The notes under the pieces are model-generated. The model searched no databases. It was not told the DNA's origin and saw only the letters and a program-made list of their open reading frames with translations. The position numbers and the translations under genes are program-made. 64,000 bases of DNA from Candidatus Latescibacterota bacterium (lineage in GTDB: Bacteria; Latescibacterota; UBA2968). Numbering within the stretch: position 1 is the stretch's first letter; every line of letters begins with the position of its first letter. This document shows positions 10,973 through 37,886 of the stretch, one piece after another. The stretch covers positions 5,888,001 to 5,952,000 of the forward strand of contig OZ241986.1 of NCBI GenBank assembly GCA_965204375.1, read 5' to 3'.

Positions 10973-11008
10973 ACGGGATATGCTCTTTCGCAGGATGCCC
11001 AGACTTGA

Positions 11009-11809
11009 TCATTCTTCAAGTGTTGGGCGATTTAGCCGCGTGTGATAGGGCGGTTCCATGACCGCGCGTTGTCGTTCGTTTGCCCATTCGGGTATGTCGT
11101 AGGCGCGTACATACGCCATGTTGCCGGCGGTGTAGCGGGTGAGCGTTGACCGCCGTGGATGGTCCGCTTTCCAGGGCAGGGTGCCGTGTGTGACGGCTTC
11201 TGTGAAGATGATTGCGTCGCCTGCCTTACAGGTGATCTGGCGGATGTGTTCCTGGTGTTTCTGGTAGAGACGCATTTCCTGCGGACAGGGATAATTGCTT
11301 TTGTGCGATCCCGGGATGAGAGAGAGACCGCCGTCGCCCGGGTTGACATCGGTGAGTTGGATGGAGACGACGGTGAGGCCGTTGTGCATTTTGCCGTTTT
11401 TAAAAATATAATACTGGTTGGGGTCAAATCCAGGTCCAGAGGAGCCGTGAAACCGATGGCCTTCGGCGCCTTTATCCATCCAGAGTAGGAACATCTGGTG
11501 GTCGATGCGAAAGCCTTTGCCGAGTATTTCGTTGAGGTAGGGCACTATGAGGGGGTGCGCCAGCATGTCGCGGAAGGGATTGCACCAGGGTTCGTCCCAG
11601 TGGATGAGGCTGCCGAGTTCGCCGCGACCATGCGTGCCCTCAAGGGCTGGTGATTCGCCGTCGAGACGCTGTTCTCTCGGGCGAGTGCGCCCTTTGTCGA
11701 GGTGGCGGTCAACCGCTTCGTTCGCCAGGGCGAGTTCGTCTTCGGTTAAAACGTTTTCAACGACGAGATACCCGTTGAGGTCAAAGAGATATTTTTCGTC
11801 TTCAGTCAT
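11009..11809 (-). CDS. phytanoyl-CoA dioxygenase (PhyH) family protein
   Basis: YLFDLNGYLV, DGGLSLIPGSHK, FTEAVTHGT. Confidence 0.85.
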   Translation of the reverse strand: MTEDEKYLFDLNGYLVVENVLTEDELALANEAVDRHLDKGRTRPREQRLDGESPALEGTHGRGELGSLIHWDEPWCNPFRDMLAHPLIVPYLNEILGKGFRIDHQMFLLWMDKGAEGHRFHGSSGPGFDPNQYYIFKNGKMHNGLTVVSIQLTDVNPGDGGLSLIPGSHKSNYPCPQEMRLYQKHQEHIRQITCKAGDAIIFTEAVTHGTLPWKADHPRRSTLTRYTAGNMAYVRAYDIPEWANERQRAVMEPPYHTRLNRPTLEE

Positions 11810-11832
11810 TGTAAATCTTCCGATTCAGGGTT

Positions 11833-11860
11833 TTCAATATTTGTGCGGACGACGAGCGTA
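11833..11860. repeat. 28-bp direct repeat copy (RDD 3'-end duplicate)
   Basis: TTCAATATTTGTGCGGACGACGAGCGTA identical to 12754-12781. Confidence 0.9.
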
Positions 11861-11869
11861 TTTTTGGGC

Positions 11870-12361
11870 TTATTTGAAAATTGGGTCTGTTGTTCGAAAT
11901 TTGAGATTGTCTTTTGTCTCGATTTCAGTAATGACCTTCCTCACATCGGCTTGCATCAAAATCCCATGTACCCATAACGCACGCAAAATTTCAGTCAAGT
12001 TGACGCAATCTATTCCGTTTCCCAGGCAGTGATGCTTAACCCGTCGCTCGTTGCTAACAAAAATGGCACTCAACCGCTTGCAGAGTGCCATTGACTCGCG
12101 CTCTCCTGCACCAAGCGTCCAGGGCAAGGTCGCCATGAACCTTTGGTCAACAGCCGTCGGATGATATGTTACGATTCGCCCTTGAGAATGCAACGCCATG
12201 ATGTGTTGTGCAAAGTCAAATCCCTTAGCGACACCCGTTTGGAGTTCGTTCTCTACAGCAGCGGAAATGCTGAGCAGGTCCTCATTAAGTACTGTAAACA
12301 GCAAGGGTAGCTGTTGAATTTTAGCGAATATGGAAAGCACATCTGTATCAATAAAAACCAC
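11870..12361 (-). CDS. PIN-domain toxin-like protein (DUF3368-like)
   Basis: FIDTDVLS, LGAGERESMALC, VSNE. Confidence 0.8.
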   Translation of the reverse strand: MVFIDTDVLSIFAKIQQLPLLFTVLNEDLLSISAAVENELQTGVAKGFDFAQHIMALHSQGRIVTYHPTAVDQRFMATLPWTLGAGERESMALCKRLSAIFVSNERRVKHHCLGNGIDCVNLTEILRALWVHGILMQADVRKVITEIETKDNLKFRTTDPIFK

Positions 12362-12393
12362 GACTAAGCCCCTTTGGCGCTGTCGTTTGATTT

Positions 12394-12714
12394 CTACTGT
12401 CGTTTGATGAGCGAAATACCTGCTTGCAAGCCTTCGGTTTCATCGACTTCGACAATTTTTGATATGCCTTTCGCTTCCAGCATGGCTTCAAACTCAAAAC
12501 GGTGGATTCCAGCCAATTCCGCGGCTCTGGCGAGCGTCACTTCATGCTGTTGATAGAGCAAAATTGCGGCATCAAGGCGAGATTCCTTTTTGGTAGTGAC
12601 CAGTTTTTTAAGGGCATCGGTTATCAACGCATGCGCGTCGGCATAAAGCCCCGCGTCAATCAGGGCGTTCACTTCTTTCTCGAGGTCGGGTGAGTGAATT
12701 TCGATCTGGAGCAT
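12394..12714 (-). CDS. UPF0175 family putative antitoxin
   Basis: AILLYQQHEVTLARAAELAGIHRFEF..L..KGI. Confidence 0.82.
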   Translation of the reverse strand: MLQIEIHSPDLEKEVNALIDAGLYADAHALITDALKKLVTTKKESRLDAAILLYQQHEVTLARAAELAGIHRFEFEAMLEAKGISKIVEVDETEGLQAGISLIKRQ

Positions 12715-24271: not shown

Positions 24272-25195
24272 ATGAATCTTTATCATTTGCGCTATTTTTT
24301 GTCTGTTGCACAGACCGGGAGTTTTAGCCAGGCAGCACGGGAGATGCATGTGACTCAGCCAACGGTGAGCAGTGGTATTGCCGAATTGGAAAAAACAATG
24401 GGGGTGAGGCTTTTTAACCGGGGTGGTAAGCGCGTGGCGCTGACGATGGAAGGGCGCACGCTGGTGAATTATGCGATGCAGATCCAGGATCTGGTCGAAG
24501 AGGTAGAAGACCACTTGCAGCGGCGCGATGTGTTGCCTGGGGAGGGGTTTCAGTTTGGCGCAATTGATGCGGCTGTGACGTATTTGTTGCCGGATATTTT
24601 GAAGGATTACAGGCGTGTTTATCCCGATGTTTCTCTGTCTGCACAGGTGGCGCCGTCGCGTTATCTGGTGGATGATCTGCTGATGAATCGCTCTGAGTTT
24701 GCGGTTATTTCACTGCCTTATGATCATCCGCGCGTGGAGACGGTGTCGATTTATCGAGATTCTATGCCGCTTGTGGTGGGGGCATCTCATCCTTTTGCTG
24801 TGCGAAAAAGCGCGACTTTGCAAGAGGTGGTGCAAGAGCCTTTGATCCTGTTTCACACGGATTCTATATCGCGCAAAATTGTGGATGAGCGATTCGCAGA
24901 AGCAGGCGTGTCTCCCGGCGTGGTGATGGAGATGCGAAGCCCAGAGGCAATGCGAAAGCTGGTGGAAGTTGGTGTTGGGATTTCTTTTTTGTCTATGCTA
25001 ACTGTGCAGGAATCCCTGGATGTCGGGGCGTTAAAGGTGGTGGATGTGGAAGGGGTGGCATTTAGCCGCGAGATCGGCGTGGCGTGGAGGCGTGGACGCT
25101 ATTTTAGTGCGGCGATTCGCCATTTGATTGAGGCGATTTTTGAAGCATACCAGGGGCTGGATATCTGGCAAAAGAAGGTGGGGAGTGCAAAGTGA
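24272..25195 (+). CDS. LysR family transcriptional regulator
   Basis: LRYFLSVAQTGSFSQAAREMHVTQPTVS..I..LE...GVRLFNR. Confidence 0.95.
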   Translation: MNLYHLRYFLSVAQTGSFSQAAREMHVTQPTVSSGIAELEKTMGVRLFNRGGKRVALTMEGRTLVNYAMQIQDLVEEVEDHLQRRDVLPGEGFQFGAIDAAVTYLLPDILKDYRRVYPDVSLSAQVAPSRYLVDDLLMNRSEFAVISLPYDHPRVETVSIYRDSMPLVVGASHPFAVRKSATLQEVVQEPLILFHTDSISRKIVDERFAEAGVSPGVVMEMRSPEAMRKLVEVGVGISFLSMLTVQESLDVGALKVVDVEGVAFSREIGVAWRRGRYFSAAIRHLIEAIFEAYQGLDIWQKKVGSAK

Positions 25196-25205
25196 GTGGC
25201 GTATG

Positions 25206-26375
25206 CTAAAACTTGAATGTTTTGCGTTCGGTTTGTGTAAGGGTTTGTTCGATGAGGGGGGCGAGGTCGAGCGTGGATTCGATTTCGAGGACTTTTTCCA
25301 AATTGGCGCGCGTTTCCGGGTGTTTGGGTACAAAGACAGAGCAACAATCTTCGTAGGGTTCGATGGAGATTTGATATGTGTCAATGCGTCGCGCTTCATT
25401 GATGATTTCTTCTTTGTTGTCACCGGCCAGGGGACGCAAGATGGGCAGTGGGGTCACTTCTTCGATAGCGCGCATGTTCGATAGGGTTTGCGAGGCGACC
25501 TGTCCGACGTTTTCGCCTGTGACGAGTGCCTGGGCATTTACTTTTTCGGCAATGGTTTCTGCAATGCGCAGCATGGCGCGGCGGTAGAGAATGACGCGGT
25601 AGCTCGCAGGTGCTCGCGTCATGATGTGGCGTTGAATTTCGACAAATGGTACCAGGTAGAGGTCCGACACGTATTGATGCCGGGTGAGGAGTCTCACGAG
25701 GTCTTCGGTGTTACGCTGGGAGTTGCGATTGGTATAGGGCTGGCTGTGAAAGTGTACATAGGTCAGTTTGACACCGCGTTTCATAATTTTGTAAGAAGCC
25801 ACGGGTGAGTCAATGCCCGAAGAGATGAGGCTTACTGCGCTTTCATTGGACCCGACGGGCAAACCCCCTGGTGCCGGAATTTTTTCGGCGTAGATAAATA
25901 TGCGTTGTGGGGCAATTTCAATAAAACAGGTGAGGTCAGGGTTGTCCATCAGGACGCGGGCACCCGACAGAGTTTGAATATGCTTGCCCACGTCCCGGTT
26001 GATTTGGTCCGAATTGAGCGGAAAGGTTTTGTCGCCGCGTCTGGTGACAATTTTGAAGGATTCGAAATCGGTTTTTTGTGCAAGTGTCCAGGTCGTTTCT
26101 CGAATGGCTTCGATATTGCGTTTGGCGATAACTGCTTCGGAAAAGTTGGCGATGCCAAAGACTGTCAGGAGTCGTTCGCGGATAACATCTATGGGTGATT
26201 CTGAGGTGAGTGAGAGCATCATGCGACCCGATAGACGCTCGACCTTTCCACAGGGTACGCCTTTGAGTGCGCGGTTGATGTTGGTCATCAGATGCCGTTC
26301 AAATTTGCCCCGATTTTTGCCTTTGAGGCCAATTTCGTGATAGTGTATGAGTATGAAGCGGTCGTTGGTCGTCAT
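25206..26375 (-). CDS. thiI: tRNA 4-thiouridine synthase (THUMP + PP-loop, no rhodanese domain)
   Basis: YHEIGLKGKNR, GGLPVG, SSGIDSPVA, GQVASQT, EDCC. Confidence 0.95.
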   Translation of the reverse strand: MTTNDRFILIHYHEIGLKGKNRGKFERHLMTNINRALKGVPCGKVERLSGRMMLSLTSESPIDVIRERLLTVFGIANFSEAVIAKRNIEAIRETTWTLAQKTDFESFKIVTRRGDKTFPLNSDQINRDVGKHIQTLSGARVLMDNPDLTCFIEIAPQRIFIYAEKIPAPGGLPVGSNESAVSLISSGIDSPVASYKIMKRGVKLTYVHFHSQPYTNRNSQRNTEDLVRLLTRHQYVSDLYLVPFVEIQRHIMTRAPASYRVILYRRAMLRIAETIAEKVNAQALVTGENVGQVASQTLSNMRAIEEVTPLPILRPLAGDNKEEIINEARRIDTYQISIEPYEDCCSVFVPKHPETRANLEKVLEIESTLDLAPLIEQTLTQTERKTFKF

Positions 26376-26383
26376 GAGATGGG

Positions 26384-27949
26384 TCAGGATTTAAGGGATA
26401 AATCGCGCTGGAGAATAACGAGGGTTATATCGTCGGTGCGCTGCGCTTTGCCAATAAAGGATTTGACATCGGCGACGAGGTCGGCAATCAGGTCTGTGGG
26501 TGTCCGATCTATGGATGCGCGTTCGAGGCAACGTATAAATCGGTCGTCGTCAAAGAAGTTGCGTTTGGCATTTTGGGCTTCGACGACACCATCGGAGTAG
26601 AGCACGAGGCGATCACCGGGCGCGAGTGTTAAATGCTCAACTCGATAGGGAGTTTGGGGGCGTACGAGTGCCGGAATGCCAAGGGGATATCCCACGAGAT
26701 CGATAAATTGAGATCGGTTGGATAGATGGATCGGTGGACAGTGTCCTGCGCTTGCAAGCGTGACTTCGCCTGTGGGTACGTCGAGCACAGCGATGCAGCA
26801 TGTGATAAATGTGGCCTGGTCAATCTGACCTTCCAGTGAGTCATTAAGACCGTCGAGAATATCGGCTGGTGCAACGCGATTTTGGCATTCATAGCGGAGC
26901 ATTTCATTGAAACGCACGGCGGTCACGGCTGCTTCCATGGCTTTGCCAGAGACATCGGCAACGACTATGCCGAGTTTTGTTTTGTCTTCATCCAACCAGC
27001 GGTACGCATAGTAATCCCCTCCCACGCTGTTGGCGGGAATACACGTTCCGTCGAGTGCAAAACCCGGCAGGTCGGGGCTGGATTGCGGCAACAGACCCAT
27101 TTGCATGTCGTGTGCTGTTTGCAATTCATCGCGCATTTCCGAAAATTGTTGTTTGTAGCTCTCCCACTGTCGCGCTTCTTCGCAAAGGGTCTGGTTGTAG
27201 GCCGATGCAAAAATCCCGAGTGCGAGGGGTTGAAAGAGGGCGAAGACACAGAACTGGACGAAGGCATTGTCGATGATATTCCTGGTGAGTGCAACTGAGC
27301 CTATGAGGATTCCGAGCGCGGTGAGTATAAGCGCGCAGTGGCGAAAGAAGCCGTAGCGTTCAACGGCTTTCCGACTTTCGACATAGGCTTCATCAATGTG
27401 TACACCCCGGTCTGCTGCCAGAAGATAGATGTAGAAGCATTTGACAACAAAAATGATGCCGGGTAAAAATAAGAGACAAGCTGCCAGAATGACGGCCCAA
27501 AAGATATTTTTTTCTTCTAATAACTTCCCAATGTGTTCTGATCCAACGGGGATAACCCAGGGCGTTCCTTGGGCAACGGCCTGTTTGAATGCATTGAGCA
27601 GAAATGCAAAGAAATCGCTGCTCATGAACACCAGTACCGAAATGATGACTAAGCCGAGAATAAAAAATAAAAAGATAAAAATGTTCATCGAAAAAAAACG
27701 GACGAAACGAATGATTTGCCCAAATAGATCTCGCATACGGGGTTTTTCCCCTTGCTGTGCGCGCAAGATCATGATGGCAAAGCCAGCATATAAGCTGCCC
27801 AGGAGCAAAGTGCCCGATATCACACTCAGGAGTATTGCCAAAAATGAAGCGAGAAACAAAATAGGCAGGTGACTCGCCCAGGAGGATATGCTGTCGTTGA
27901 GACAGCGGAAGTATTGGAGATTTGCCCGAACGGGGATATCGAGAGCCAT
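26384..27949 (-). CDS. membrane-anchored PP2C/SpoIIE serine phosphatase
   Basis: Multi-TM N-terminus; ELQTAHDMQMGLLP, VGGDYY, VADVSGK, AGH, YSDGVVEA, DDITL. Confidence 0.92.
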   Translation of the reverse strand: MALDIPVRANLQYFRCLNDSISSWASHLPILFLASFLAILLSVISGTLLLGSLYAGFAIMILRAQQGEKPRMRDLFGQIIRFVRFFSMNIFIFLFFILGLVIISVLVFMSSDFFAFLLNAFKQAVAQGTPWVIPVGSEHIGKLLEEKNIFWAVILAACLLFLPGIIFVVKCFYIYLLAADRGVHIDEAYVESRKAVERYGFFRHCALILTALGILIGSVALTRNIIDNAFVQFCVFALFQPLALGIFASAYNQTLCEEARQWESYKQQFSEMRDELQTAHDMQMGLLPQSSPDLPGFALDGTCIPANSVGGDYYAYRWLDEDKTKLGIVVADVSGKAMEAAVTAVRFNEMLRYECQNRVAPADILDGLNDSLEGQIDQATFITCCIAVLDVPTGEVTLASAGHCPPIHLSNRSQFIDLVGYPLGIPALVRPQTPYRVEHLTLAPGDRLVLYSDGVVEAQNAKRNFFDDDRFIRCLERASIDRTPTDLIADLVADVKSFIGKAQRTDDITLVILQRDLSLKS

Positions 27950-27954
27950 AATAA

Positions 27955-29364
27955 TCAGGGTTTTTCTTTGTTGAGTTTGTATTTGCGGTACAGGTGGCGA
28001 AATTGGTCGTAGCTGAGTTTGAGTTGTTTGGCGGCTTCGCGCTGGTTCCAGGAGACTTTATTGAGAATGCGCCGCAATAGACTCAGTTCAAAGGATTGCA
28101 CTTGTGATTCAAAGCCGTCGCTCAATTCGGGTGATTGGGATGCTTGTTGAGTAACTTCGGGGGGCAGATCGTCGGGTTCAATCTCTGTTCCATGGGCGAC
28201 ACAGGCCGCGCGTTCGGCCGCAAATTTGAGTTCGCGCACATTGCCAGGCCAGCGATATGTCATCAGGCGTTCTGTTGCCGCGTCGGAAAAATCGCGTTTT
28301 TGCAGGCCTGGTACTTCTTCGACGATTTGTGCGACAAAATAATTGGCTAATGCGGGAATGTCTTCTCGACGTTCGCGCAACGGGGGCATGTGCAAGACTT
28401 CAAAGCGCAATCTGTCGTAGAGGTCCTGGCGGAATCGGCCTTCGGCAATTTCCGTTTCGAGGTCGGTATTCGTGGCGGCAATAACGCGCACGTCGATAAA
28501 GATGGGGGTCGCGCTGCCCACGCGCTGGATTTCGCTGTATTCTATGGCGCGCAATACGTTTTGCTGAAATTCGGGGGTGGTATTGCCAATTTCATCGAGA
28601 AATAGGGTGCCGCCACTCGCGGCTTCAAATTTGCCCGTGCGGGCTTCTGTTGCGCCCGTATAAGCCCCTTTTTCGTGTCCAAAGAGTTCGCTTTCGAGCA
28701 ATTGGTCGGCAATGGCGGCGCAGTTGACTTTGACAAAGGGGCGGTCTTTGCGGTCACTGCCATAGTGGATGGCAGCGGCGACGAGTTCTTTGCCCGTTCC
28801 GGGTTCGCCTGTGATGAGCGCGGGCCGGGGGATGGGGGCTACGGTCTGCGCTCGCTGGAGGATTTGCTGGAGTTTGGGACTGGAGCCGATGATTTGATAA
28901 CGCTTGCCAAATTCGTCTCGGTAGAATTGGTTTTCGCGCCCCAGGTCCTGAACTTCGGCCCGCAGTTGGGCGTTTTCCCTGAGTGCTTGATACACGCGGT
29001 CGAGTTTTTCAAGGCTGAGTTCGATTTTGTCTTCGATATAAAAGTCTTTTTCAATAAAGTCTGTCGCGCCCAATCGCAATGCGGCTACGGCAGTATCTAT
29101 TGTGCCCTGTCCGGTGAGCATGATGACGGGCAGATCGGGAACCGATTCGAGCATTTGTGGTAAAATTTCGAGGCCATCGGGTTCATCGGGTCCGTAATCG
29201 AGGTCGAGAATGGCCAGTCCAATCTGATTGGGATGCTGTTGCAGATATGATAGTGCTTCGCGTCCGGTAGAGAAGGCATGGATTTTGCGCGTGTCGTCTC
29301 GCAGGCTTTGAATCAGCATGTCGAGGACTTCTATCTGGTCGTCAGCAACGATAATTTCAGTCAT
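27955..29364 (-). CDS. sigma54-dependent response regulator: REC + PspF-like AAA+ + HTH
   Basis: REC (VADD, ILD, MLTG, FIEK); GEPGTGKE, ESELFGHEKGAYTGA; PspF-like IEY, DRLRFEV and WNQREAAKQLKLSYDQFR. Confidence 0.92.
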   Translation of the reverse strand: MTEIIVADDQIEVLDMLIQSLRDDTRKIHAFSTGREALSYLQQHPNQIGLAILDLDYGPDEPDGLEILPQMLESVPDLPVIMLTGQGTIDTAVAALRLGATDFIEKDFYIEDKIELSLEKLDRVYQALRENAQLRAEVQDLGRENQFYRDEFGKRYQIIGSSPKLQQILQRAQTVAPIPRPALITGEPGTGKELVAAAIHYGSDRKDRPFVKVNCAAIADQLLESELFGHEKGAYTGATEARTGKFEAASGGTLFLDEIGNTTPEFQQNVLRAIEYSEIQRVGSATPIFIDVRVIAATNTDLETEIAEGRFRQDLYDRLRFEVLHMPPLRERREDIPALANYFVAQIVEEVPGLQKRDFSDAATERLMTYRWPGNVRELKFAAERAACVAHGTEIEPDDLPPEVTQQASQSPELSDGFESQVQSFELSLLRRILNKVSWNQREAAKQLKLSYDQFRHLYRKYKLNKEKP

Positions 29365-29376
29365 GGGACGAGGGGC

Positions 29377-30630
29377 TTATTGAATAAATTCTTCAGCTAT
29401 TGGATCGCGCGAGGTGTCGGGTACGCTGTGTTGCAGGCCAATGCTGTCGTGTTGTGTTGAGACTTCAAAATCGACGGGCAGGTCAATGCGAAAAACCGCG
29501 CCTGCGCCCGGGCGGCTGATTACGCGCAACGTGCCGCGGTGTGCTGCTGCAATGCGAGAGCATATACTCAGCCCATAGCCATTGCCCCGTTCCCGCGTTG
29601 AAAATCCGGGGTCAAATATGCGGGTTTGCAAGTTTTCGGGAATGCCGGGACCATTGTCTTCCACTTCAATATATACCGAACTGCGCTCTGTATCGGCGCC
29701 GACCTGTACTCTCACCACGCCATTATTTTCAACGGCTTCGATGGCGTTGAGGGTCAGGTTTGTGACGGCTTCAGATAACATGCCAGCATCTGCTTTTACC
29801 TGAGGTACACGAGGTTCGGCGGCAAAGATGAGTTCTTTGTCCCCTGCTCGTGCAGAGAGTTTGTGGGTCATTTTTTCAATGAGTTGGGGCACATCGACCA
29901 GCGCGGGGTTCAGGGTGTCTTGTTTCATAGATCGCAAGTAGGCAACCCATTGGCTGTAGATGTGTTCTTGTTCGTGTGCGATGTCTTTCAGATCATCCAG
30001 GCAGTCGGTATTTGGCGGTAAATTGCGTATGGCGCGACGCATTCGGCTGCCGGAGAGCCCCATCAGGTTTTTGATGCGATGGCCGTGCGTGTAGAGGCTT
30101 TCATAGACCTGTGCGCGCCCAAGGTCTATGAGTTCGAGAGATAGGCGGGCGAGAATGCTCGATGCTCTGACGCCAAATTCTTCGGTGATGCTTGCGTATT
30201 CGCGTTCCATTTGTGCCGGGCTCATGTGCTGAAAGAGCAATCGGGCGAGGTTGCGATAAGGTAGCATGTAATCGGGTTCGAGGTGTATGGCGATTTTAAA
30301 CTCGCCAAGAGCCGATAGGATTTGCCCATTTTGCATGAGCAAAACGCCCAGGTTGTTATGCCCGGGCGCAAAGAGGGGATCGGCTTCTAAACCCCGGCGG
30401 TAAACGGCTATGGCTCGAGATGCGTTTTCCGGGAAGTCATCGAGCAAGCTGCCCAACAAAAAACAGACACGGTCCATTTCTTCGCCCTGGTCATCGACAG
30501 ACAAAATGTATTCGAGGTGTTCAACCGCTTTTTTGTAGTCGCCCGAGCCTGGTGCTGCCCCGCGTGCGTGTTGCAGCGCCATTTGGAAACGGGATTCTAT
30601 GTCTGTGGCTATGTTCAGGGTGTTGGTCAT
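29377..30630 (-). CDS. soluble TPR-repeat sensor histidine kinase
   Basis: TPRs (GHNNLGVLL, YRNLA); H-box HRIKNL; N-box NLTLNA; DNGPG, FDPGFST, GYGL; no TM. Confidence 0.9.
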   Translation of the reverse strand: MTNTLNIATDIESRFQMALQHARGAAPGSGDYKKAVEHLEYILSVDDQGEEMDRVCFLLGSLLDDFPENASRAIAVYRRGLEADPLFAPGHNNLGVLLMQNGQILSALGEFKIAIHLEPDYMLPYRNLARLLFQHMSPAQMEREYASITEEFGVRASSILARLSLELIDLGRAQVYESLYTHGHRIKNLMGLSGSRMRRAIRNLPPNTDCLDDLKDIAHEQEHIYSQWVAYLRSMKQDTLNPALVDVPQLIEKMTHKLSARAGDKELIFAAEPRVPQVKADAGMLSEAVTNLTLNAIEAVENNGVVRVQVGADTERSSVYIEVEDNGPGIPENLQTRIFDPGFSTRERGNGYGLSICSRIAAAHRGTLRVISRPGAGAVFRIDLPVDFEVSTQHDSIGLQHSVPDTSRDPIAEEFIQ

Positions 30631-30649
30631 GGTTGTATGAATCTGCGGA

Positions 30650-30720
30650 ACGGGGTTCGTCTATGAACGGGGCTGGGAAACGCCCCGTTGTACCCCGCTC
30701 CGTCTATTCGTCTATTCGTC
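30650..30720. repeat. REP-like nested hairpin with (GTCTATTC)n
   Basis: CGGGGTTCGTCTATGAACGGGGC-TGGGAAAC-GCCCCGTTGTACCCCGCTCCGTCTATTCG; homologue of 8881-8957. Confidence 0.8.
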
Positions 30721-32292
30721 TTCTGTGGTATCGGGTTTGCCGTTTTCTCCAGATGCTTGTTCGCCGTTCATTTTGCCCAGAAATTCGGGCAATTCAAGCC
30801 CGGCGAGACGCGCCAGATCGTGCATGGGCGGTATGGCACCCATGAGGCGTTGTCCCAGGTTGGACATGCCACTCTCGCCATTGCCGCTGTCCCAGACCAT
30901 CACTTTGTCGATGGGCAAGTTGCTAATGGCTTCGGCCTGGATGTTGGCGACTTCGGTGAGACGTTCGATGATTAGAAAGGCCGCTGCTGCCTGGTCGTTG
31001 CTGCCACAGGCTTCAACGAGTTGTCTGTATCCTTCGGCTTTGGCATTGAGAATGGCCTGAGTCCCTTCGGCTTCGGCCTGTTTTTCTGCGAGAATGGCAG
31101 CGGCTTCACCTTCGGCAATAAGTCGTCGCTGTTCTTTTTCGGCTTCTGCTTGAACGACCTGGCGTTCTTTTTCGGCTTCTGCCTGAACGACGATTTCTGC
31201 GCGTAAACGCGCTTCTTCGCGCAGTGCTCGGGCTTCTTCGGCTGCTTTTTCCGCGGTTTCCTGGGCGACGCGAATAGCGCCGTCAGTGGCTTTGGTCGCT
31301 TCTTCTGCTTGCCGGCGCGCTTCTTCTTCTGCCACGCGTTGTCCCGCGCGATAGCCGGCTGTTTTTGCTTCTGCTTCTGTTTCTGCCTGTACGGCTTCTG
31401 CTTCGAGAGCTGCGACATTTTGGCGTTTGTCTCGCCCGGCTTCTGCTTCGCCGATTTCTGCTTCTGATTCGAGTGCTGCGACCTGTCGTCGCCTGTCTCT
31501 CGCAGCTTCAGATTCACCAATTTCTGCTTCTGATTCGAGTGCTGCGACCTGTCGGCGTCTGTTTCGCGCTGCTTCTGCTTCGCCAACTTCAGCTTCTGAT
31601 TCGGCAGCGGCGACGTCCCGACGCCGATCGCGTGCGCGTTCGGCCACACCAACCTGCCCGTGTCGTTCTTGTTCGGCTACGTCGATAGATGCTTGATTCA
31701 CGGCTTCAGCCGCTGCTTTTTGGCCGATGGCTTTGATGTAGCCGCTTTCGTCATCGAGGTCTTTGATGTTGACGTTGATGACGGAGAGACCAATTTTTTC
31801 CATTTCAGTGGAGACGGCGTCATTTACTTTGGTCATGAATGCCTGTCGGTCCTGGTTGATTTCTTCAATTTGCATGGTTGCAATGACTGCGCGCATCTGA
31901 CCGAGGATGATGTCTTGTGCCTGGCTTTGAACTTGTTCGCGGGAAAGGCCCAGGAGGCGGATGGCCGCGTTTTGCATGATGCCGGGTTGATTGGAGACGG
32001 CTGCTGTGACTGTGGTGGGCACGGATACGCGGATGTTTTCCTGTGATAGCGCGTTGTCCAGGTCAATGGGTACGACAAAGGGTTCGAGGTCGAGGTAGTC
32101 GTAGTCCTGCAATAGGGGCAGGATAAAAGCTGCGCCGCCGTGTACACATTTTGCGGCTGTGCCACCCCCTGTTTTGCCGTAGATGACGAGTATTTTGTTG
32201 GATGGACAGCGTTTGTAACGCGAGATAAATGTGAGGAACAGCAATAATACAACGGCTGATAGGATGACGGTGAGGATGAATTCAGTGGGCAT
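30712..32292 (-). CDS. flotillin (SPFH/Band 7) family protein
   Basis: N-terminal TM, SRYKRCPS, GG.AF..P, GQMRAVIA, EA-rich coiled coil with 22-aa repeats. Confidence 0.93.
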   Translation of the reverse strand: MPTEFILTVILSAVVLLLFLTFISRYKRCPSNKILVIYGKTGGGTAAKCVHGGAAFILPLLQDYDYLDLEPFVVPIDLDNALSQENIRVSVPTTVTAAVSNQPGIMQNAAIRLLGLSREQVQSQAQDIILGQMRAVIATMQIEEINQDRQAFMTKVNDAVSTEMEKIGLSVINVNIKDLDDESGYIKAIGQKAAAEAVNQASIDVAEQERHGQVGVAERARDRRRDVAAAESEAEVGEAEAARNRRRQVAALESEAEIGESEAARDRRRQVAALESEAEIGEAEAGRDKRQNVAALEAEAVQAETEAEAKTAGYRAGQRVAEEEARRQAEEATKATDGAIRVAQETAEKAAEEARALREEARLRAEIVVQAEAEKERQVVQAEAEKEQRRLIAEGEAAAILAEKQAEAEGTQAILNAKAEGYRQLVEACGSNDQAAAAFLIIERLTEVANIQAEAISNLPIDKVMVWDSGNGESGMSNLGQRLMGAIPPMHDLARLAGLELPEFLGKMNGEQASGENGKPDTTEDE

Positions 32293-32306
32293 AGGGTCCC
32301 CTTTGT

Positions 32307-32915
32307 TTAGGATTGAATGGGTTCTACTTCGACTGTGGTTATGTCGAGTGTTCGCAATACGCGAACCGGCGTTTTATTCTGGATGGACTGCCCGTCTTTG
32401 CTGCGTGCAGAGACGTAGTTGACAGCCCCGCTTTCCATTACGCGAATTTGACCGGCGCCATTTTCGGGGATGTCGATATAGACTTCGCCTTCATTGCCGA
32501 TACAGGACGATAGGTTTCGGTTATGCGATTCGGAGAGTTGTTGCACTTTGTAGAAGAAATATGCAACCAGGACCATCCCTGCGCCGCCCCATACGAGGCC
32601 GCGAAGAACCGATTCTTCGATTGAGAGGCCCAGGTCGAGGTAGAGTGCGCCCGCCCAGCCAAAGAGCATGCCAAAGGCTATTACAGAACGCAGCGAGAGC
32701 AGTTGAAAGGTGGCGACACCGTGATCATAAGGACTATTATCGACATCTGGCCCCGCATCGTTGGCATTGAAGCTGTCATGGTCCATGACGTCTGCGGAAT
32801 CGCCCAGGCCGATGAGTGTTGTGATAAATTGCCAGAGAAACAAAAGGGTGAAGAAGACAGCACAGCCATAGAATGCCTGATTGAGAGGCGCGAGTTCTGA
32901 CCACCATGCCTGCAT
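32307..32915 (-). CDS. NfeD-like membrane protein (flotillin partner)
   Basis: 3 TM plus C-terminal OB-fold IGNEGEVYIDIP..G.GQI; directly upstream of flotillin. Confidence 0.85.
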   Translation of the reverse strand: MQAWWSELAPLNQAFYGCAVFFTLLFLWQFITTLIGLGDSADVMDHDSFNANDAGPDVDNSPYDHGVATFQLLSLRSVIAFGMLFGWAGALYLDLGLSIEESVLRGLVWGGAGMVLVAYFFYKVQQLSESHNRNLSSCIGNEGEVYIDIPENGAGQIRVMESGAVNYVSARSKDGQSIQNKTPVRVLRTLDITTVEVEPIQS

Positions 32916-33020
32916 ATTAACCTCCAGAAATCGATTGCGCGTTCCATCAACTATTTTAGGTGTAGGAATCTGTTATTCTTAAATTTGTTCATGCAAGGGA
33001 CGAAAAGCAAGGGTTATTTC

Positions 33021-33611
33021 TTATCCGGGTTGTAAGCCGAGTTTGCGAAATTCGCTTTTGAGCTGGCGGCGGGCGCGGCACAGCCAGGTTTTTACGGTTC
33101 CAAGCGGAACGCGAAGTGCCTGTGTAATTTCTTCGTAGGACCAGTCCATGACGTAGCGCAGCCACATGGCTTTGCGATAGCGTTCGGGCAAGTTTTGTAT
33201 GCTTTTGTGGACCAATTGTATGCGTTCGCGTTTTTCTACGATCTGGTCTGGTAGCGCGCCGGGTATGAGGTCGCGGAGGACGTTGTGTACGACTTCGGGG
33301 TCTTCGGTTTGATAGACCCAGTTTTGCCGCACTTGCTGCGAGCGGAGGTGCGATCGATAGACGTTGAGGGCAATTTGCGTGAGCCAGGTCGAAAATGCTG
33401 CCTGGCCTTTGAATGTGTGGAGCGAGCGATAGGCGCGAAAAAATGTGTCTTGCATCAGGTCGTCAACGGTGTCGCGGTCTGAAAGGCGCTGTGCGAGGGT
33501 GCCGTAGATCTGACTTTGATATTTGTGGTAGAGCGTTTCAAATGCCCGGCGGTCGCCAGAGAGGGATGCGCGAATCAGGTTTTGATCCTGTGTTTTCACT
33601 TTTTTCTCCAT
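33021..33611 (-). CDS. ECF RNA polymerase sigma factor
   Basis: GDRRAFETLY, DLMQDTFFRAY, FSTWL..IA.N, LP..YR, SYEEI...L..PLGTVKT.L.RAR. Confidence 0.93.
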   Translation of the reverse strand: MEKKVKTQDQNLIRASLSGDRRAFETLYHKYQSQIYGTLAQRLSDRDTVDDLMQDTFFRAYRSLHTFKGQAAFSTWLTQIALNVYRSHLRSQQVRQNWVYQTEDPEVVHNVLRDLIPGALPDQIVEKRERIQLVHKSIQNLPERYRKAMWLRYVMDWSYEEITQALRVPLGTVKTWLCRARRQLKSEFRKLGLQPG

Positions 33612-33669
33612 TCGTTAAGGTAATTCGTTAATTACTACTCTTTTGATTGTGATAAGACGGATTTTTCCG

Positions 33670-33840
33670 TCAGTCTCTTCTGAGCAAGCGATAACCGATC
33701 GCAATACATATAGCGGCGATGAGAAGTCCGATCAGGTGCAAGATTGATTCCAGTAGAGAGCCGATGAGTGGGAAGAGAACTGTAAAGGCAATATAGCCGC
33801 CGATGACGATGAATAAGATGCCGATGAGTTTTGCCAACAT
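33670..33840 (-). CDS. small 2-TM membrane protein (56 aa, absent from ORF track)
   Basis: AAAGGA RBS; MLAKLIGILFIVIGGYIAFTVLFPLIGSLLESILHLIGLLIAAICIAIGYRLLRRD*. Confidence 0.8.
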   Translation of the reverse strand: MLAKLIGILFIVIGGYIAFTVLFPLIGSLLESILHLIGLLIAAICIAIGYRLLRRD

Positions 33841-33871
33841 GGGATGTCCTTTTTATTTTTGAGGTTGTCCG

Positions 33872-34231
33872 TCAATCCGAGATGGTCTGCGGAGGTGGAG
33901 ATGGTGTAGCGAGTGATTTGCTTTCGAGACGCTCGAGTTTGTCGTCGTTGGTGATGACGATGTCCTGCAGGTCAATGAGGCGTTTTTCGAGTTCTTTCAC
34001 GCGTTTTGTCAGTTTTTCAGACAGGTTGTTGTTTTTTATTGATCTATTTCTTCGTTCGTCTTCTGACGCAAATGTGAATGTGATAGTAAAAAAGGTGATG
34101 AAAGCCATAGCCCCCCAGGCTGCCGCCAGGCCGAGACCACCTCCCAATGTTGGGTTTTCGATATAGACAATTGTGCCGCTTGCAAGAATAATCAGGCTGA
34201 TACCAACCGTGATTGTAAGAAAGATACGCAT
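33872..34231 (-). CDS. PspB-like membrane protein (2 TM + coiled coil), paralogue 3
   Basis: RVKELEKRLIDLQDIVITNDDKL tail shared with neighbours. Confidence 0.75.
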   Translation of the reverse strand: MRIFLTITVGISLIILASGTIVYIENPTLGGGLGLAAAWGAMAFITFFTITFTFASEDERRNRSIKNNNLSEKLTKRVKELEKRLIDLQDIVITNDDKLERLESKSLATPSPPPQTISD

Positions 34232-34248
34232 GGTGCCCTCCCTGTAAA

Positions 34249-34482
34249 TTAGCGCGCAGTGGGTGATCGGTCGAATTTTTCGTCCATGGTGATGAGGATA
34301 TCCTGAATGTCTGTGAGCCTGCGGTCGAGTTCATCTATTCTCGCATTCAAGCGTTCTTCTGCATCGCTGGGAATGGACCCTTTGGTGCGGCGATCAATGT
34401 ATTTGTGTACTGCTGACGCAATGGCGCCTACAATGATGATCATCAATATGCCACCCATAGTGACACCAATAACATTAGTCAT
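34249..34482 (-). CDS. PspB-like membrane protein (1 TM + coiled coil), paralogue 2
   Basis: AGGAGG RBS; SIPSDAEERLNARIDELDRRLTDIQDILITMDEK. Confidence 0.8.
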   Translation of the reverse strand: MTNVIGVTMGGILMIIIVGAIASAVHKYIDRRTKGSIPSDAEERLNARIDELDRRLTDIQDILITMDEKFDRSPTAR

Positions 34483-34493
34483 TTTACCCCTCC

Positions 34494-34697
34494 TTATCTT
34501 CTGCTGAGTTTTTCATCAATGGTGATCATGACATCTTGAATGTCTGTGAGTCTGCGTTCGAGTTCGTCCATTCTCGCGTTTATGCGTTCTTCTGCATCGC
34601 TGGGGATGGACCTTCTGGTGCGGTGCTCGACGTATTTGTATGCCGCTGATGCGAGAATGATTATCGCTACCATCATTCCAATTTCAAACATTACCAT
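34494..34697 (-). CDS. PspB-like membrane protein (1 TM + coiled coil), paralogue 1
   Basis: GGAGG RBS; SIPSDAEERINARMDELERRLTDIQDVMITIDEK. Confidence 0.8.
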   Translation of the reverse strand: MVMFEIGMMVAIIILASAAYKYVEHRTRRSIPSDAEERINARMDELERRLTDIQDVMITIDEKLSRR

Positions 34698-34718
34698 TAT
34701 TTTGCCCTCCCACACACA

Positions 34719-35387
34719 TTAGAGTTCATCGATGGGTCTCGCGCGGTATTTTTCATCCCAGCGTTCGATTTCCGGAAAATGGTAAACGACCAGTCCCGAA
34801 TCTGAGATTCGCATTTCCGCATGACCACTTATGGTTAATTCTCGCAGGATTTCTTCGGTTTTTTCAACTGTTATTCTGGTGTCCATGGCAGCTTCTGTTA
34901 CGGTGAGGCTGCCCCCTTTTTCTCGGGCGAGACGGAGTATGCGATGCTGATTTTTGGCATGTGCTTTTTTGTCTCCCGATCTTTTGACCCGGCGACCTGC
35001 CCACCATATAAGTTGAGAGAAGACGATTATACAGAGGCCAACACTGAGTTCTTCGTGTCTGAATGGATTTGTGTCTGCCCAGGGGGGATGTTCTACCAGT
35101 GTAATGAGTACGAGCATGAGGCCGCAAAATCCCATAAGTGCGGCCATTCCTATTAAACCATAAGCGAAGAGATAACGCATGGCACAACTCCCATCGGTGG
35201 CGAGGTCAGAGAGGCGGTCGGGCACGCGCTTGAATGAATTGGTTGCGGTTTGGAAATCGCTGCTCGCGCTGTGAACGCGCGCCTCCCAATTTCCCTTCCA
35301 TTTCTTTTTTATTTTTCGCTCCGCATTGTTGACCGCGCGGTCAATTTTGCTGGCGATTTCATCGGCGAGTTTTTCCAGGTCACGCAT
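34719..35387 (-). CDS. membrane protein: N-terminal helical region, 2 TM, C-terminal winged-helix-like domain
   Basis: RILRLAREKGGSLTVTEAAM......E..L..L...G......SDSG.VVYHF; overlaps pspA stop. Confidence 0.75.
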   Translation of the reverse strand: MRDLEKLADEIASKIDRAVNNAERKIKKKWKGNWEARVHSASSDFQTATNSFKRVPDRLSDLATDGSCAMRYLFAYGLIGMAALMGFCGLMLVLITLVEHPPWADTNPFRHEELSVGLCIIVFSQLIWWAGRRVKRSGDKKAHAKNQHRILRLAREKGGSLTVTEAAMDTRITVEKTEEILRELTISGHAEMRISDSGLVVYHFPEIERWDEKYRARPIDEL

Positions 35388-36057
35388 CTTTTTGTCCCAT
35401 TTTCTTTTTTAGTGCATTGAGTTCGTCTTCTACTGTGCTTTTGCGCTCGAGTTTGGAAAATTCTTCTTCCAGAGAGGGGTCAGCACTCGCCATTTCTTGA
35501 TGGGCTTCGGCTTCGGCTTCTTCGGTTTCGATGCGCTGGCGGAACCGTTCAAAGCTCGAAAATGCGTCTTCACCTACTCCCGAGAGGCCCCTGGCGATTT
35601 GCTTGCGGGCTTCGGCTGCACGACGTCGGGCAATTAGAGTGCCCTGGCGGGTGCGGGCTTCGTCGAGTTTGGCTTTGAGTTGGGTGAGTTGTTGTTTGAG
35701 TTGGGACGAGGTTTTACGGCTTTCTTCGAGGGCGACTTCAAGGTCGTGTGTGGCTTCCTGATTTGCAGCTTTGCGCTCGAGGGCGCGGCGGGCAAGGTCG
35801 TCTTCGCCGGCTTCAACGGCTAATTCGGCTTTTTTTTGCCAGGCTTCGATTTGATCCTGTTTTTCGAGATATTGTCTTTCCAGGCGTTTTTCATTCGCTA
35901 CAGCCGTGCCGACTGAGGCAGTGGCTTTGTTGACGGCTTCTTCCATTTCCAGAATCATCTGGCGGATCATTTTTTCCGGGTCTTCGGCGCGGGTAATCAG
36001 GTCGTTGACGTTGGCTTTGACGATGTCGGCCATTCTGTAAAAAATTCCGCGTGCCAT
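35380..36057 (-). CDS. pspA: phage shock protein A (PspA/IM30)
   Basis: GIFYRMADIVKANVNDLITRAEDPEKMIRQMILEME; AELAVEAGEDDLARRAL; VEDELNALKKKM. Confidence 0.95.
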   Translation of the reverse strand: MARGIFYRMADIVKANVNDLITRAEDPEKMIRQMILEMEEAVNKATASVGTAVANEKRLERQYLEKQDQIEAWQKKAELAVEAGEDDLARRALERKAANQEATHDLEVALEESRKTSSQLKQQLTQLKAKLDEARTRQGTLIARRRAAEARKQIARGLSGVGEDAFSSFERFRQRIETEEAEAEAHQEMASADPSLEEEFSKLERKSTVEDELNALKKKMGQKDA

Positions 36058-36125
36058 GATTTACTCCTTTCACAAGGTGCTACATTTATGGGATTCTGAT
36101 GTTTTTTGTTGTCGCATTCTTTTTA

Positions 36126-36141
36126 TGCAAAGTCTATGCCA
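36126..36141 (-). promoter_or_regulatory. sigma54 (-24/-12) promoter of the pspA operon
   Basis: Minus strand TGGCATAGACTTTGCA vs consensus TGGCAC-N5-TTGCA, ~70 bp upstream of pspA ATG. Confidence 0.88.
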
Positions 36142-36215
36142 GGAGTGTGATGTGATATTAAATGTTGTTTTTTATATACATAGATGTTTTAGAGAAATGG
36201 GACAGGTCGATAGAG

Positions 36216-36254
36216 TTGGTAAAAATTGCCATGTGTGCTGGCGAAAGAGACCAA
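36216..36254. promoter_or_regulatory. two putative bEBP enhancer (UAS) sites
   Basis: TGG-N9-CCA at 36217-36231 and 36239-36253, 22 bp apart, ~100-140 bp upstream of the sigma54 start. Confidence 0.65.
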
Positions 36255-36374
36255 ATTTTCAATTTTTAGAGGGTCATATCTTGTCTTTTTTTTCTAAAAG
36301 GTCTATTATCTATCGGTTTGTCGCAAGTTGGTCTCAAATGTCACTACTTTTTTACTTTATATACTGAATTTTTT

Positions 36375-37886
36375 ATGCTTCGATATATCCGAGTGTCTTT
36401 ATTGGCCTGCTTCCTTTTGTCGTGTGCGGCACATGCGCCTGCTTTAACAGAGACTTATGTGGTGCAAAGAGGGGATTCTCTGTGGGAAATTGCCGATCAG
36501 TTTTCCATGAGTGTGGCCGAACTCAAGCGGAGCAATGGGTTAAAGTCGCATCACATTTATCCCGGACAAAGACTGCTCATTCGCTCACAAAGGCTTCCCA
36601 TGCGCTCCTCCAGTGGGGTAGAATACGTGGTGAGAAGGGGAGATTCGCTTTCTAAAATCGCCGCGCGGTTTTCTATGAGTGTGTCCGAACTGAAGCGTAT
36701 CAATGGTTTGAGGTCGAATAATATTTATCCCGGACAAAGGCTTCGTATCCGCTCTTCTGCAGCGCAACCGTCTCGCTCCCGTTCTTATACTGAGCAATCG
36801 TCTCGCACCACAGTGCAACCGTCTCGCTCCCGTCCATCTTCTGGCTACGTAGAAATGGACTATGTGGTGAGAAGGGGGGATACACTTTCTAAAATTGCCG
36901 CACAATATTCTATGGGCCTGACTGAACTCAAGCGGAGCAATGGTATCCGGGCAGATCGCATTTATGTGGGCCAGAGGTTAAAGATACGGACTCGGTTAAC
37001 AAAGATCACGATGGATAATGGGCCGTATTATTTTTATCGTCCCAAAGCTGCTGTGCAACGCAGTCGGAGATATCGGGAAGTGCCCCCCAAAAAGCCGATT
37101 GAAGATTATAGGAGTGCCCGCAATTTGATGGGCGTGTTTAATGCAAATATTAATTCTGATATGCGTCGAGATAGCCGATCACAGCCGTTGAAAGGCTGGC
37201 GCATTGTGCTCGACCCGGGGCATGGTGGACGCGACCCGGGTGCTATTGTTTCCAATTTAGATGGCAATAATCGTTCGGTTTATGTGGTCGAAGACGAATT
37301 TGTTTACGATATCGCGTTGCGTTTGTACCAAAAACTGAGGCTTGCAGGTGCCGAGGTGGAGATGACGGTGATTAGTCCAAATCATCTCATTCGGGAAAAT
37401 AATCCGCCTGCAAGGACGTTTGTACACGAACAAAACGAAGTCTATAACGATGTAAGTGTCAACAGAAGAAATAGTTTTTCAGTGCGTCCGGGGCTTGATA
37501 ATATTGTACAGCGGGTAAAAATAGCCAACCGTTTCTTTGCAAGGCGCGGGAAGACTCTGTTTATATCCCTGCATGCAGACAACACGCCCAATCGCTCAAA
37601 GGGTCCGCTGGTTATTTATTGGAGCAGGCGCGGGAAGATCGATTCCCGGTCCCGGTCATTTGCGCGGATTATGGAAAGGGCACTCGATCTGCCAGATGTG
37701 CCCGCTCAAATTGGGGGACGCAATCTGGCGGTGTTGCGGGGCAATCTGGCGCAGGCAGAAATTCTGGTGGAGATACGCAATGTACACCATAAAGGCGAAG
37801 CATGGGCATTGCGGTCCCACAAGAGGCGCGACTCCGATGCGAATCGAATTTTTCGCGGGATATTAAATTACGCGAAGAGGTATTAG
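36375..37886 (+). CDS. 3xLysM + N-acetylmuramoyl-L-alanine amidase (Amidase_3)
   Basis: Signal peptide; three YVV.RGD.L..IA LysM repeats; VLDPGHGG, SLHAD, LVE. Confidence 0.92.
   Translation: MLRYIRVSLLACFLLSCAAHAPALTETYVVQRGDSLWEIADQFSMSVAELKRSNGLKSHHIYPGQRLLIRSQRLPMRSSSGVEYVVRRGDSLSKIAARFSMSVSELKRINGLRSNNIYPGQRLRIRSSAAQPSRSRSYTEQSSRTTVQPSRSRPSSGYVEMDYVVRRGDTLSKIAAQYSMGLTELKRSNGIRADRIYVGQRLKIRTRLTKITMDNGPYYFYRPKAAVQRSRRYREVPPKKPIEDYRSARNLMGVFNANINSDMRRDSRSQPLKGWRIVLDPGHGGRDPGAIVSNLDGNNRSVYVVEDEFVYDIALRLYQKLRLAGAEVEMTVISPNHLIRENNPPARTFVHEQNEVYNDVSVNRRNSFSVRPGLDNIVQRVKIANRFFARRGKTLFISLHADNTPNRSKGPLVIYWSRRGKIDSRSRSFARIMERALDLPDVPAQIGGRNLAVLRGNLAQAEILVEIRNVHHKGEAWALRSHKRRDSDANRIFRGILNYAKRY

Follow-up and report, generated by a model that had tools for sequence, protein, structure and literature searches.

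Described control of the phage-shock protein PspA takes several forms. Passages of PMC9239133 and PMC11237479 cover regulation by sigma-54 and PspF, by the Lia two-component system and by the extracytoplasmic function (ECF) sigma factor SigW, and note Band 7 and NfeD genes next to pspA. In the enterobacterial phage-shock (Psp) system pspF is divergent from the operon pspABCDE, and pspG stands apart as an orphan. Control of PspF by PspA requires tryptophan 56 (W56) of the activator. In Bacillus subtilis, PspA homologs belong to the SigW regulon (pspA–ydjGHI, yuaF–floT–yuaI) or to the LiaIH–LiaFSR system, and the NfeD–flotillin pair is tied to the same envelope-stress response as PspA. In Pseudomonas syringae the sigma-54 activators HrpR and HrpS drive the gene of an ECF sigma factor, HrpL, that has no cognate anti-sigma factor. 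Here we describe a locus that shares features with each of these. It lies in a stretch of 64,000 nucleotides (hereafter the window; positions 5,888,001 to 5,952,000 of contig OZ241986.1, assembly GCA_965204375.1) from a Candidatus Latescibacterota bacterium, in which 13 minus-strand open reading frames (ORFs), headed by pspA, run head to tail at 25206–36057 with intergenic gaps of −8 to 105 nt. The conserved Psp arrangement found there is real and apparently undescribed. We favour, with rather more confidence than doubt, the reading that one class of the phylum has its own, lineage-specific module for envelope stress, of the phage-shock type, with a sigma-54 core under histidine–aspartate (His–Asp) control.

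How does the locus compare with these systems? As in enterobacteria, pspA follows a predicted sigma-54 promoter that has putative activator sites upstream, genes for small membrane proteins come after pspA, the activator is closest to PspF, and the probable regulon has a second, unlinked promoter. Unlike in enterobacteria, the activator carries a receiver, is encoded on the same strand at the 3′ end and has its own soluble TPR kinase; a lysine stands at the position of W56, there are no PspB or PspC homologs, the membrane partners differ, and genes for an ECF sigma factor, NfeD–flotillin and a PP2C phosphatase are inserted. The likeness to the SigW and Lia systems is that a PspA homolog is placed with an ECF sigma factor or under a two-component system. 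The differences are that the regulator here is an NtrC-type sigma-54 activator, not a receiver–helix-turn-helix (REC–HTH) protein, that the kinase is soluble, that LiaF, LiaI and Toastrack are absent, and that the putative pspA operon itself includes the ECF gene, without an RsiW-like anti-sigma factor. Searches of the 13 cluster proteins with Pfam and NCBIfam gave no match to the LiaI/LiaF membrane domain, to Toastrack or to the REC–HTH regulator. With HrpR/S–HrpL the locus has in common an ECF sigma factor without cognate anti-sigma under a (here predicted) sigma-54 promoter, but that cascade serves type III secretion, its activators have no receivers and it has no PspA.

Has the combination been described before? 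As reported in PMC4641369, the Desulfovibrio vulgaris PspF (DVU2989) controls DVU2988–2986, a sigma-54 psp operon outside the Gammaproteobacteria; DVU2989 has no N-terminal domain, that is, it is of the canonical type, unlike the Latescibacterota activator. The 11 ‘REC+’ contexts in the supplement of PMC11237479 are without exception of the REC plus winged-HTH kind, and its PspF contexts are receiver-less; that study left PspF and two-component systems out of its detailed analysis. A literature search that included PMC9239133, PMC11237479, PMC4641369 and PMC3162934 did not find the combination in the sections of those papers that it covered, and the web application of PMC11237479 or the external data of PMC9239133 may list such contexts.

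Two adjacent genes encode the putative His–Asp pair. The activator gene (27955–29364) encodes 469 amino acids matching Response_reg, Sigma54_activat and AAA_lid_14. The receiver (residues 4–111) is complete, with D9, D10, D54, T84 and K106 all kept, and the AAA+ domain has the GAYTGA loop. The HTH_8 match is weak (E 0.0013; 18.8 versus 22 bits, below the cut-off), and the C-terminal region aligns with the HTH of Escherichia coli PspF to the last residue. Identity to E. coli PspF is 44% across the AAA+ and HTH domains, and the protein is the best of the 19 PspF matches in the genome (263 versus 231 bits). The kinase gene (29377–30630; 417 amino acids) ends 12 nt upstream of the activator gene. 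Its product has TPR and HATPase_c matches, and the NCBIfam models NtrB and PrsK align from residue 183–184, in the H-box region, where the H-box-like HGHRIKNLM is found. Hydropathy gives no hydrophobic segment in either protein. With an acceptor aspartate in the receiver, the loop, the HTH and the adjacent kinase gene, the activator is of NtrC type; with its Response_reg domain, and a lysine aligned to W56, it is not a canonical, receiver-less PspF. Domain matches and the PspF alignment support the original prediction of a PspF-like activator that carries a receiver and is paired with a kinase of its own. The kinase N-terminus is about 120 amino acids shorter in the window’s genus (proteins of 417–455 amino acids) than in the other family of its order and the sister family of the same class (531–566 amino acids).

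Might PspA nevertheless inhibit the AAA+ domain as in E. coli, with the receiver and kinase as a secondary input? It is the genome’s closest relative of PspF that we are considering, similar across both the AAA+ and HTH domains, and the PspA of the window (35380–36057; 225 amino acids; PF04012, E 1.1e-46) is 38% identical to E. coli PspA and keeps the region of the N-terminal amphipathic helix, while falling under the NCBIfam equivalog cut-offs (TIGR02977, 181.5 versus 242.95 bits). Yet the residue corresponding to W56 is replaced, the receiver has all of its phospho-acceptor residues, and a dedicated kinase gene adjoins the activator gene in 41 of 41 loci of the window’s order and in 13 of 13 of the sister family. 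We therefore consider it unlikely that the classic brake has been retained as the principal control.

What lies ahead of pspA? The −24/−12 element of sigma-54 type, TGGCAT-N5-TTGCA (TGGCATAGACTTTGCA; 36126–36141), is on the minus strand, as are the other elements named here; transcription is predicted to begin near 36115, and the pspA ATG follows 58 nt on. Farther upstream are two putative activator sites of the form TGG-N9-CCA, site 1 the palindrome TGGTCTCTTTCGCCA at 36239–36253 and site 2 TGGCAATTTTTACCA at 36217–36231, 22 bp apart centre to centre. The A/T-rich block TATATAAAAAACAACA (36163–36178), which lies between these sites and the promoter, may be a DNA-bending site. The −24/−12 match occurs once in the window, where 0.25 is expected and 24 of 100 shuffled sequences have at least one; taken alone it could have arisen by chance. 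Two TGG-N9-CCA sites spaced 7 nt apart are likewise found nowhere else in the window, and here only 0.01 such pairs are expected. The genome encodes rpoN. Fifty-seven loci offer 250 nt or more of sequence upstream of pspA, and every one has the −24/−12 match, 64–111 nt ahead of the ATG; at least one TGG-N9-CCA site lies about 100 nt farther upstream of the promoter in 48, and 29 have at least two. The half-sites persist and the inner sequence drifts, from TGGTC..CGCCA in the genus to TGGTG..CACCA in the other family of the order and TGGCG..CGCCA in the sister family. We judge the predicted promoter and activator-site motifs to be real because they are conserved across loci; their positions are those that had been read from the window alone. 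The 260-nt intergenic region is shared with a divergent gene for a LysM N-acetylmuramoyl-L-alanine amidase (36318–37886, plus strand), whose start codon is 65 nt from the end of site 1. Both families of the order retain this pairing, and co-regulation of the amidase gene with pspA is possible.

Does the promoter design recur in the genome? We scanned both strands for a −24/−12 match with a TGG-N9-CCA site 50–220 nt upstream and obtained 16 matches, of which only the one ahead of the window pspA has the two-site arrangement. The match most like it belongs to an orphan pspA paralog outside the window (5701396–5702067; with its promoter region, 5701239–5702067, or L004:1338-2166), which has TGGCACAGATATTGCA at −67, one palindrome, TGGTCTTTATCACCA, at −157 and an identical 16-nt A/T block. 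All 19 loci of the genus that have a clean ATG, the window’s own genome among them, share this design; six more distant orphan loci have both motifs in one case, the TGG-N9-CCA site only in four and neither in one. The orphan pspA probably belongs to the regulon as its second member. The situation parallels that of E. coli pspG, given in PMC9239133 as a second target of PspF. A third pspA paralog of the same genome, at about 6166781–6168610 (L003:1017-2843), has the arrangement CesT_Tir_1–PspA–DUF4178 and matches the CesT/Tir–PspA class described in PMC11237479.

How far does the arrangement extend among relatives? We counted genes in 46 loci from the two families of the order, the window included. 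In all 46, pspA precedes and adjoins the gene of a membrane protein with a winged helix. Where the sequence continues for 3.5 kb or more downstream, an ECF sigma factor is always encoded (42 of 42 loci); where it continues for 7 kb or more, so are kinase and activator (41 of 41). The small coiled-coil membrane proteins, here called sB, range from 0 to 5 copies. Taken alone, these counts could reflect plain synteny, because the flanking genes (P-type ATPase, divergent LysM amidase, lysR, inositol-phosphate synthase) are syntenic too. In the sister family, 13 of 13 loci (L046, L099–L110) keep pspA, kinase and activator together with a shorter version of the winged-helix protein, with 0–2 sB genes and sometimes sTM, a gene for a tiny two-helix membrane protein, inside the core. 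None of these 13 loci has the ECF sigma factor, nfeD, flotillin, PP2C, thiI or any of the genes that flank the cluster in the window; an sTM homolog is present in some of them, although they lack the ECF sigma factor. Since the sister family retains the core and shares no flanks, the core is kept as a unit without general synteny; since it does so without ECF sigma, NfeD–flotillin and PP2C, we read these as later additions. The conserved core is pspA, the winged-helix protein, 0–5 small membrane coiled-coil proteins, the tiny two-helix protein, kinase and activator.

This delimits what had been proposed. Thirteen co-oriented genes are present where they had been placed, as ORFs and profile searches agree. 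Conservation of the arrangement applies to the core in all three families, and not to the whole 13-gene set. A functional ‘super-operon’ of 13 genes is not supported: thiI is best taken as a neighbour, PP2C is found in 19 of the 30 order-level loci that extend at least 1.8 kb past the activator gene, NfeD–flotillin is present in 36 and missing in five of the 41 that reach the activator, and the ECF sigma factor is found in 0 of 13 loci of the sister family.

Which membrane proteins accompany PspA here? Pfam searches of the whole genome gave no match to PspB (PF06667) or PspC (PF04024) above the cut-offs, which supports the predicted absence of PspC. The gene after pspA, which it overlaps by 8 nt (34719–35387), encodes a hairpin membrane protein of 222 amino acids with a C-terminal winged helix. 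It matches no family in Pfam or NCBIfam, and of 133 homologs none has a functional name, those with any name being called ‘hypothetical protein’. The AlphaFold model (mean confidence, pLDDT, 71.7; built on 30 sequences) has an N-terminal helix that is long and poorly defined, a pair of long helices that take in a hydrophobic stretch, and the C-terminal winged helix; hydropathy and model together back the earlier label of a membrane winged-helix protein. Foldseek returned winged-helix proteins only (MarR, ArsR, TFE and two ESCRT-II chains), all weak matches, the best at E 2.3e-3. Basic residues flank the hairpin, and both ends of the protein are probably cytoplasmic.

Four small membrane protein genes follow. 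The first three encode sB1 (34494–34715; an alternative start at the ATG at 34697 is possible), a small protein with a membrane segment and a coiled coil, its paralog sB2 (34249–34482) and the two-helix paralog sB3 (33872–34231). In the alignment the three are paralogs of one another, with one or two membrane helices followed by a coiled coil that carries the common motif R..DELERRLTDIQD. The fourth, sTM (33670–33840), has 56 amino acids and two membrane helices by hydropathy. The sB proteins had been called PspB-like. No Pfam or NCBIfam model matches them as PspB; with single-sequence templates, which give low sensitivity, hhalign put the probability of a match between the sB proteins and E. 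coli PspB at 5.8% and between them and PspC at 2.9%; for the winged-helix protein and PspC it was 0.2%. A protein atlas relates sB1 to a cluster automatically named ‘PspB family’ at 0.86 and to a PF06667 cluster at 0.78, which we take as a lead only. Homology of sB1–sB3 to PspB or PspC thus finds no support from Pfam, NCBIfam or hhalign; the likeness to PspB is one of build. In locus L037 an insertion (10068–12668) with three ORFs of 425, 142 and 280 amino acids separates the winged-helix gene from sB.

We surveyed 168 Candidatus Latescibacterota genomes with profiles of the winged-helix protein and of PspC. In the window’s family the winged-helix protein was found in 29 of 30 genomes and PspC in none of the 30; the other family of the order gave 21 of 22 and 0 of 22, and the sister family 50 of 76 and 2 of 76. 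In the other 11 families the winged-helix protein was found in 0 of 39 and PspC in 26 of 39. This complementary distribution fits a displacement of PspC by new membrane proteins, though as statistics the contrast is weak, because it is essentially a single phylogenetic one. Is the winged-helix protein a general partner of PspA? A profile search at E up to 0.001 recovered a wider family of 1361 representative proteins, mostly of about 150 amino acids; among 73 metagenome loci of this family, pspA was present in only nine, which resemble the module of the sister family. We therefore reject a general partnership and regard the link to PspA as lineage-specific. In three of three other loci examined (L150, L159, L166) the gene that follows encodes a double zinc-ribbon protein (PF13453), and not PspA. 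Fusions of the wider family to TMEM43, RDD and adenylate cyclase domains exist.

We turn to the added genes. The ECF sigma factor (33021–33611; 196 amino acids), which is RpoE/SigW-like, consists of Sigma70_r2 and Sigma70_r4_2 domains (PF04542, E 1.6e-16; PF08281, E 3.7e-16). Its gene is flanked by nfeD downstream and by sTM upstream. Between sTM and the ECF gene, the hairpin GACGGAAAAATCCGTC at 33656–33671 is kept within the genus; it is no more stable than shuffled sequence (z −1.0). At the same place, locus L036 has an insertion (10619–11644) with an ORF of 341 amino acids. The next gene (32307–32915) encodes a short NfeD of the YuaF/YqiJ kind, with three hydrophobic segments by hydropathy and a C-terminal domain; its name rests on a sub-threshold PF01957 match (E 0.0082), and the gene is always paired with that of the flotillin (30712–32292; 526 amino acids), a FloT-like SPFH/Band 7 protein (Band_7, E 2.2e-27). 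Downstream of the activator gene lies an accessory gene (26384–27949) for a polytopic membrane phosphatase of the PP2C/SpoIIE type (PF07228, E 2.2e-45), in which about six membrane helices precede the SpoIIE domain. The last gene, thiI (25206–26375), encodes a tRNA 4-thiouridine synthase (TIGR00342, 378 bits, above the cut-off) and is possibly read through; it is best read as a neighbour because in the second family of the order it has the same position with unrelated genes in between. Of the earlier gene labels, then, most stood in the profile searches, nfeD is weakly supported and PspB-like describes resemblance of architecture only.

What might hold the ECF sigma factor in check? Neither its neighbours nor the other cluster proteins contain an anti-sigma domain known to Pfam or NCBIfam, in accord with the original prediction that no anti-sigma factor was obvious. 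The N-terminal extension of the winged-helix protein could serve instead, in which case release of the ECF sigma factor by stress would be the main output. The idea arises because a long N-terminus (about 70 amino acids, with the motif DGSCAMRY) occurs in the order, whose families have the ECF sigma factor; the sister family, in which no locus of 13 encodes that factor, has the short form (frames of about 154–202 amino acids, with matches mostly from profile position ~70), and the domain searches gave no other candidate in the locus. This co-occurrence, however, probably goes back to one event in evolution; the searches detected neither an anti-sigma domain nor a zinc motif in the protein, and its N-terminus is modelled with low confidence. 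We hold such an anti-sigma role to be a long shot.

Are the genes transcribed together? In the minus-strand intergenic gaps of the cluster we found no terminator-like sites, and an Rfam search of 24500–37000 matched no RNA element. RNA contigs from four libraries, 90–99% like the window, bridge several junctions in relatives: pspA/winged-helix gene, sB2–sB3–sTM–ECF–nfeD, kinase/activator and activator/PP2C. The libraries with the window stretch or close relatives are sponge and coral metatranscriptomes. A single contig of 10,463 nt extends from within thiI as far as 36072, with 48 letters more; its end would then lie near the predicted start at ~36115, a weak hint in favour of that start. The contigs also include a close relative without PP2C, in which 26370 is joined to 27959, and relatives without the sB2 copy, in which 34242 is joined to 34495.

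How, then, might the module work? We infer co-transcription, positive autoregulation, a signal path from membrane to kinase and a role for the ECF sigma factor from sequence. The ancestral core would be a sigma-54 operon with one or two TGG-N9-CCA sites, the A/T-rich block and the −24/−12 promoter. Membrane damage would be registered by the small membrane proteins, by movement of PspA to the membrane, or by both, and the signal would pass to the soluble kinase, probably via its TPR domain. The kinase would phosphorylate the receiver of the PspF-like activator, which would assemble at the upstream sites and open the sigma-54 promoter. The output would be more PspA, more of its membrane partners and more of the kinase–activator pair, that is, a positive loop; the activator would also drive the orphan pspA with its like promoter. 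His–Asp signalling would have replaced, or at least joined, the PspA–PspF brake. Later, in the window’s order, an ECF sigma factor without recognisable anti-sigma would have been inserted, most members would have added NfeD–flotillin, and one family the membrane PP2C. With the ECF gene under the sigma-54 promoter, a cascade from sigma-54 to ECF sigma would result.

Several points weigh against this reading. The analysis is computational throughout, in an uncultivated phylum. The relatives are kin, so that the locus counts given above are not independent, and nine of the 57 upstream regions lack an exact TGG-N9-CCA site. Pfam detects no HisKA domain in the kinase, and sensing of the membrane by a soluble kinase is purely conjectural. 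No convincing conserved motif marks an ECF-type promoter ahead of nfeD, the ECF gene or the kinase gene. Because the RNA contigs do not resolve a single transcript, a strand or a start, they give no more than a hint of co-transcription; and because another, of 12,073 nt, continues past the promoter and into the amidase gene on its other side, carry-over of DNA or a merging of transcripts is possible. Upstream of nfeD, a sigma-70-like match and conserved blocks suggest internal promoters. The blocks, with the spacer ahead of the kinase gene, which in the RNA contigs is replaced in close relatives, may leave room for such promoters. In the second family of the order (L081–L095), the ECF–nfeD spacer has a conserved TTGACG and, after it, the perfect palindrome AGAATATTCT; a separate nfeD–flotillin unit may have its operator or promoter here.

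Could the cluster be three independent units (pspA–ECF, nfeD–flotillin and kinase–activator–PP2C–thiI) held in place by synteny, with the main target of the activator elsewhere? The elements upstream of nfeD and the replaced spacer would suit this, as would the syntenic flanks of the order, and the widest gaps of the cluster, 105 nt after the ECF gene and 81 nt, fall ahead of nfeD and of the kinase gene. But the sister family keeps the genes from pspA to the activator together without shared flanks; and of the 16 matches in the genome-wide scan, the pair of sites occurs at the window pspA only, and the match most like it again precedes a pspA. We give this explanation little credence.

A further reading joins several of these elements, and we put it forward as speculation of low probability. 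PspB and PspC would have been displaced by a membrane-tethered winged-helix adaptor and coiled-coil proteins that recruit the ESCRT-III-like PspA (compare the winged-helix subunits of ESCRT-II); free PspA, or the adaptor, would gate the TPR kinase, and in one order the N-terminus of the adaptor would hold the ECF sigma factor. If this were true, the demand for membrane repair would be read as phosphorylation, and one sensor would feed both the sigma-54 loop and the ECF branch.

Returning to the sigma-54 module under His–Asp control, what would it mean for Psp systems? Ordinary His–Asp signalling, and not sequestration of PspF by PspA, would here link a Psp effector to sigma-54, which bears on the origin of the receiver-less PspF. 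The locus also brings to light a family of partner proteins that had no annotation, membrane proteins with two helices and a winged helix, found in those parts of the phylum that lack PspC. With its two promoters, a kinase and an activator, the system offers material for the study of envelope stress in a heterologous host.

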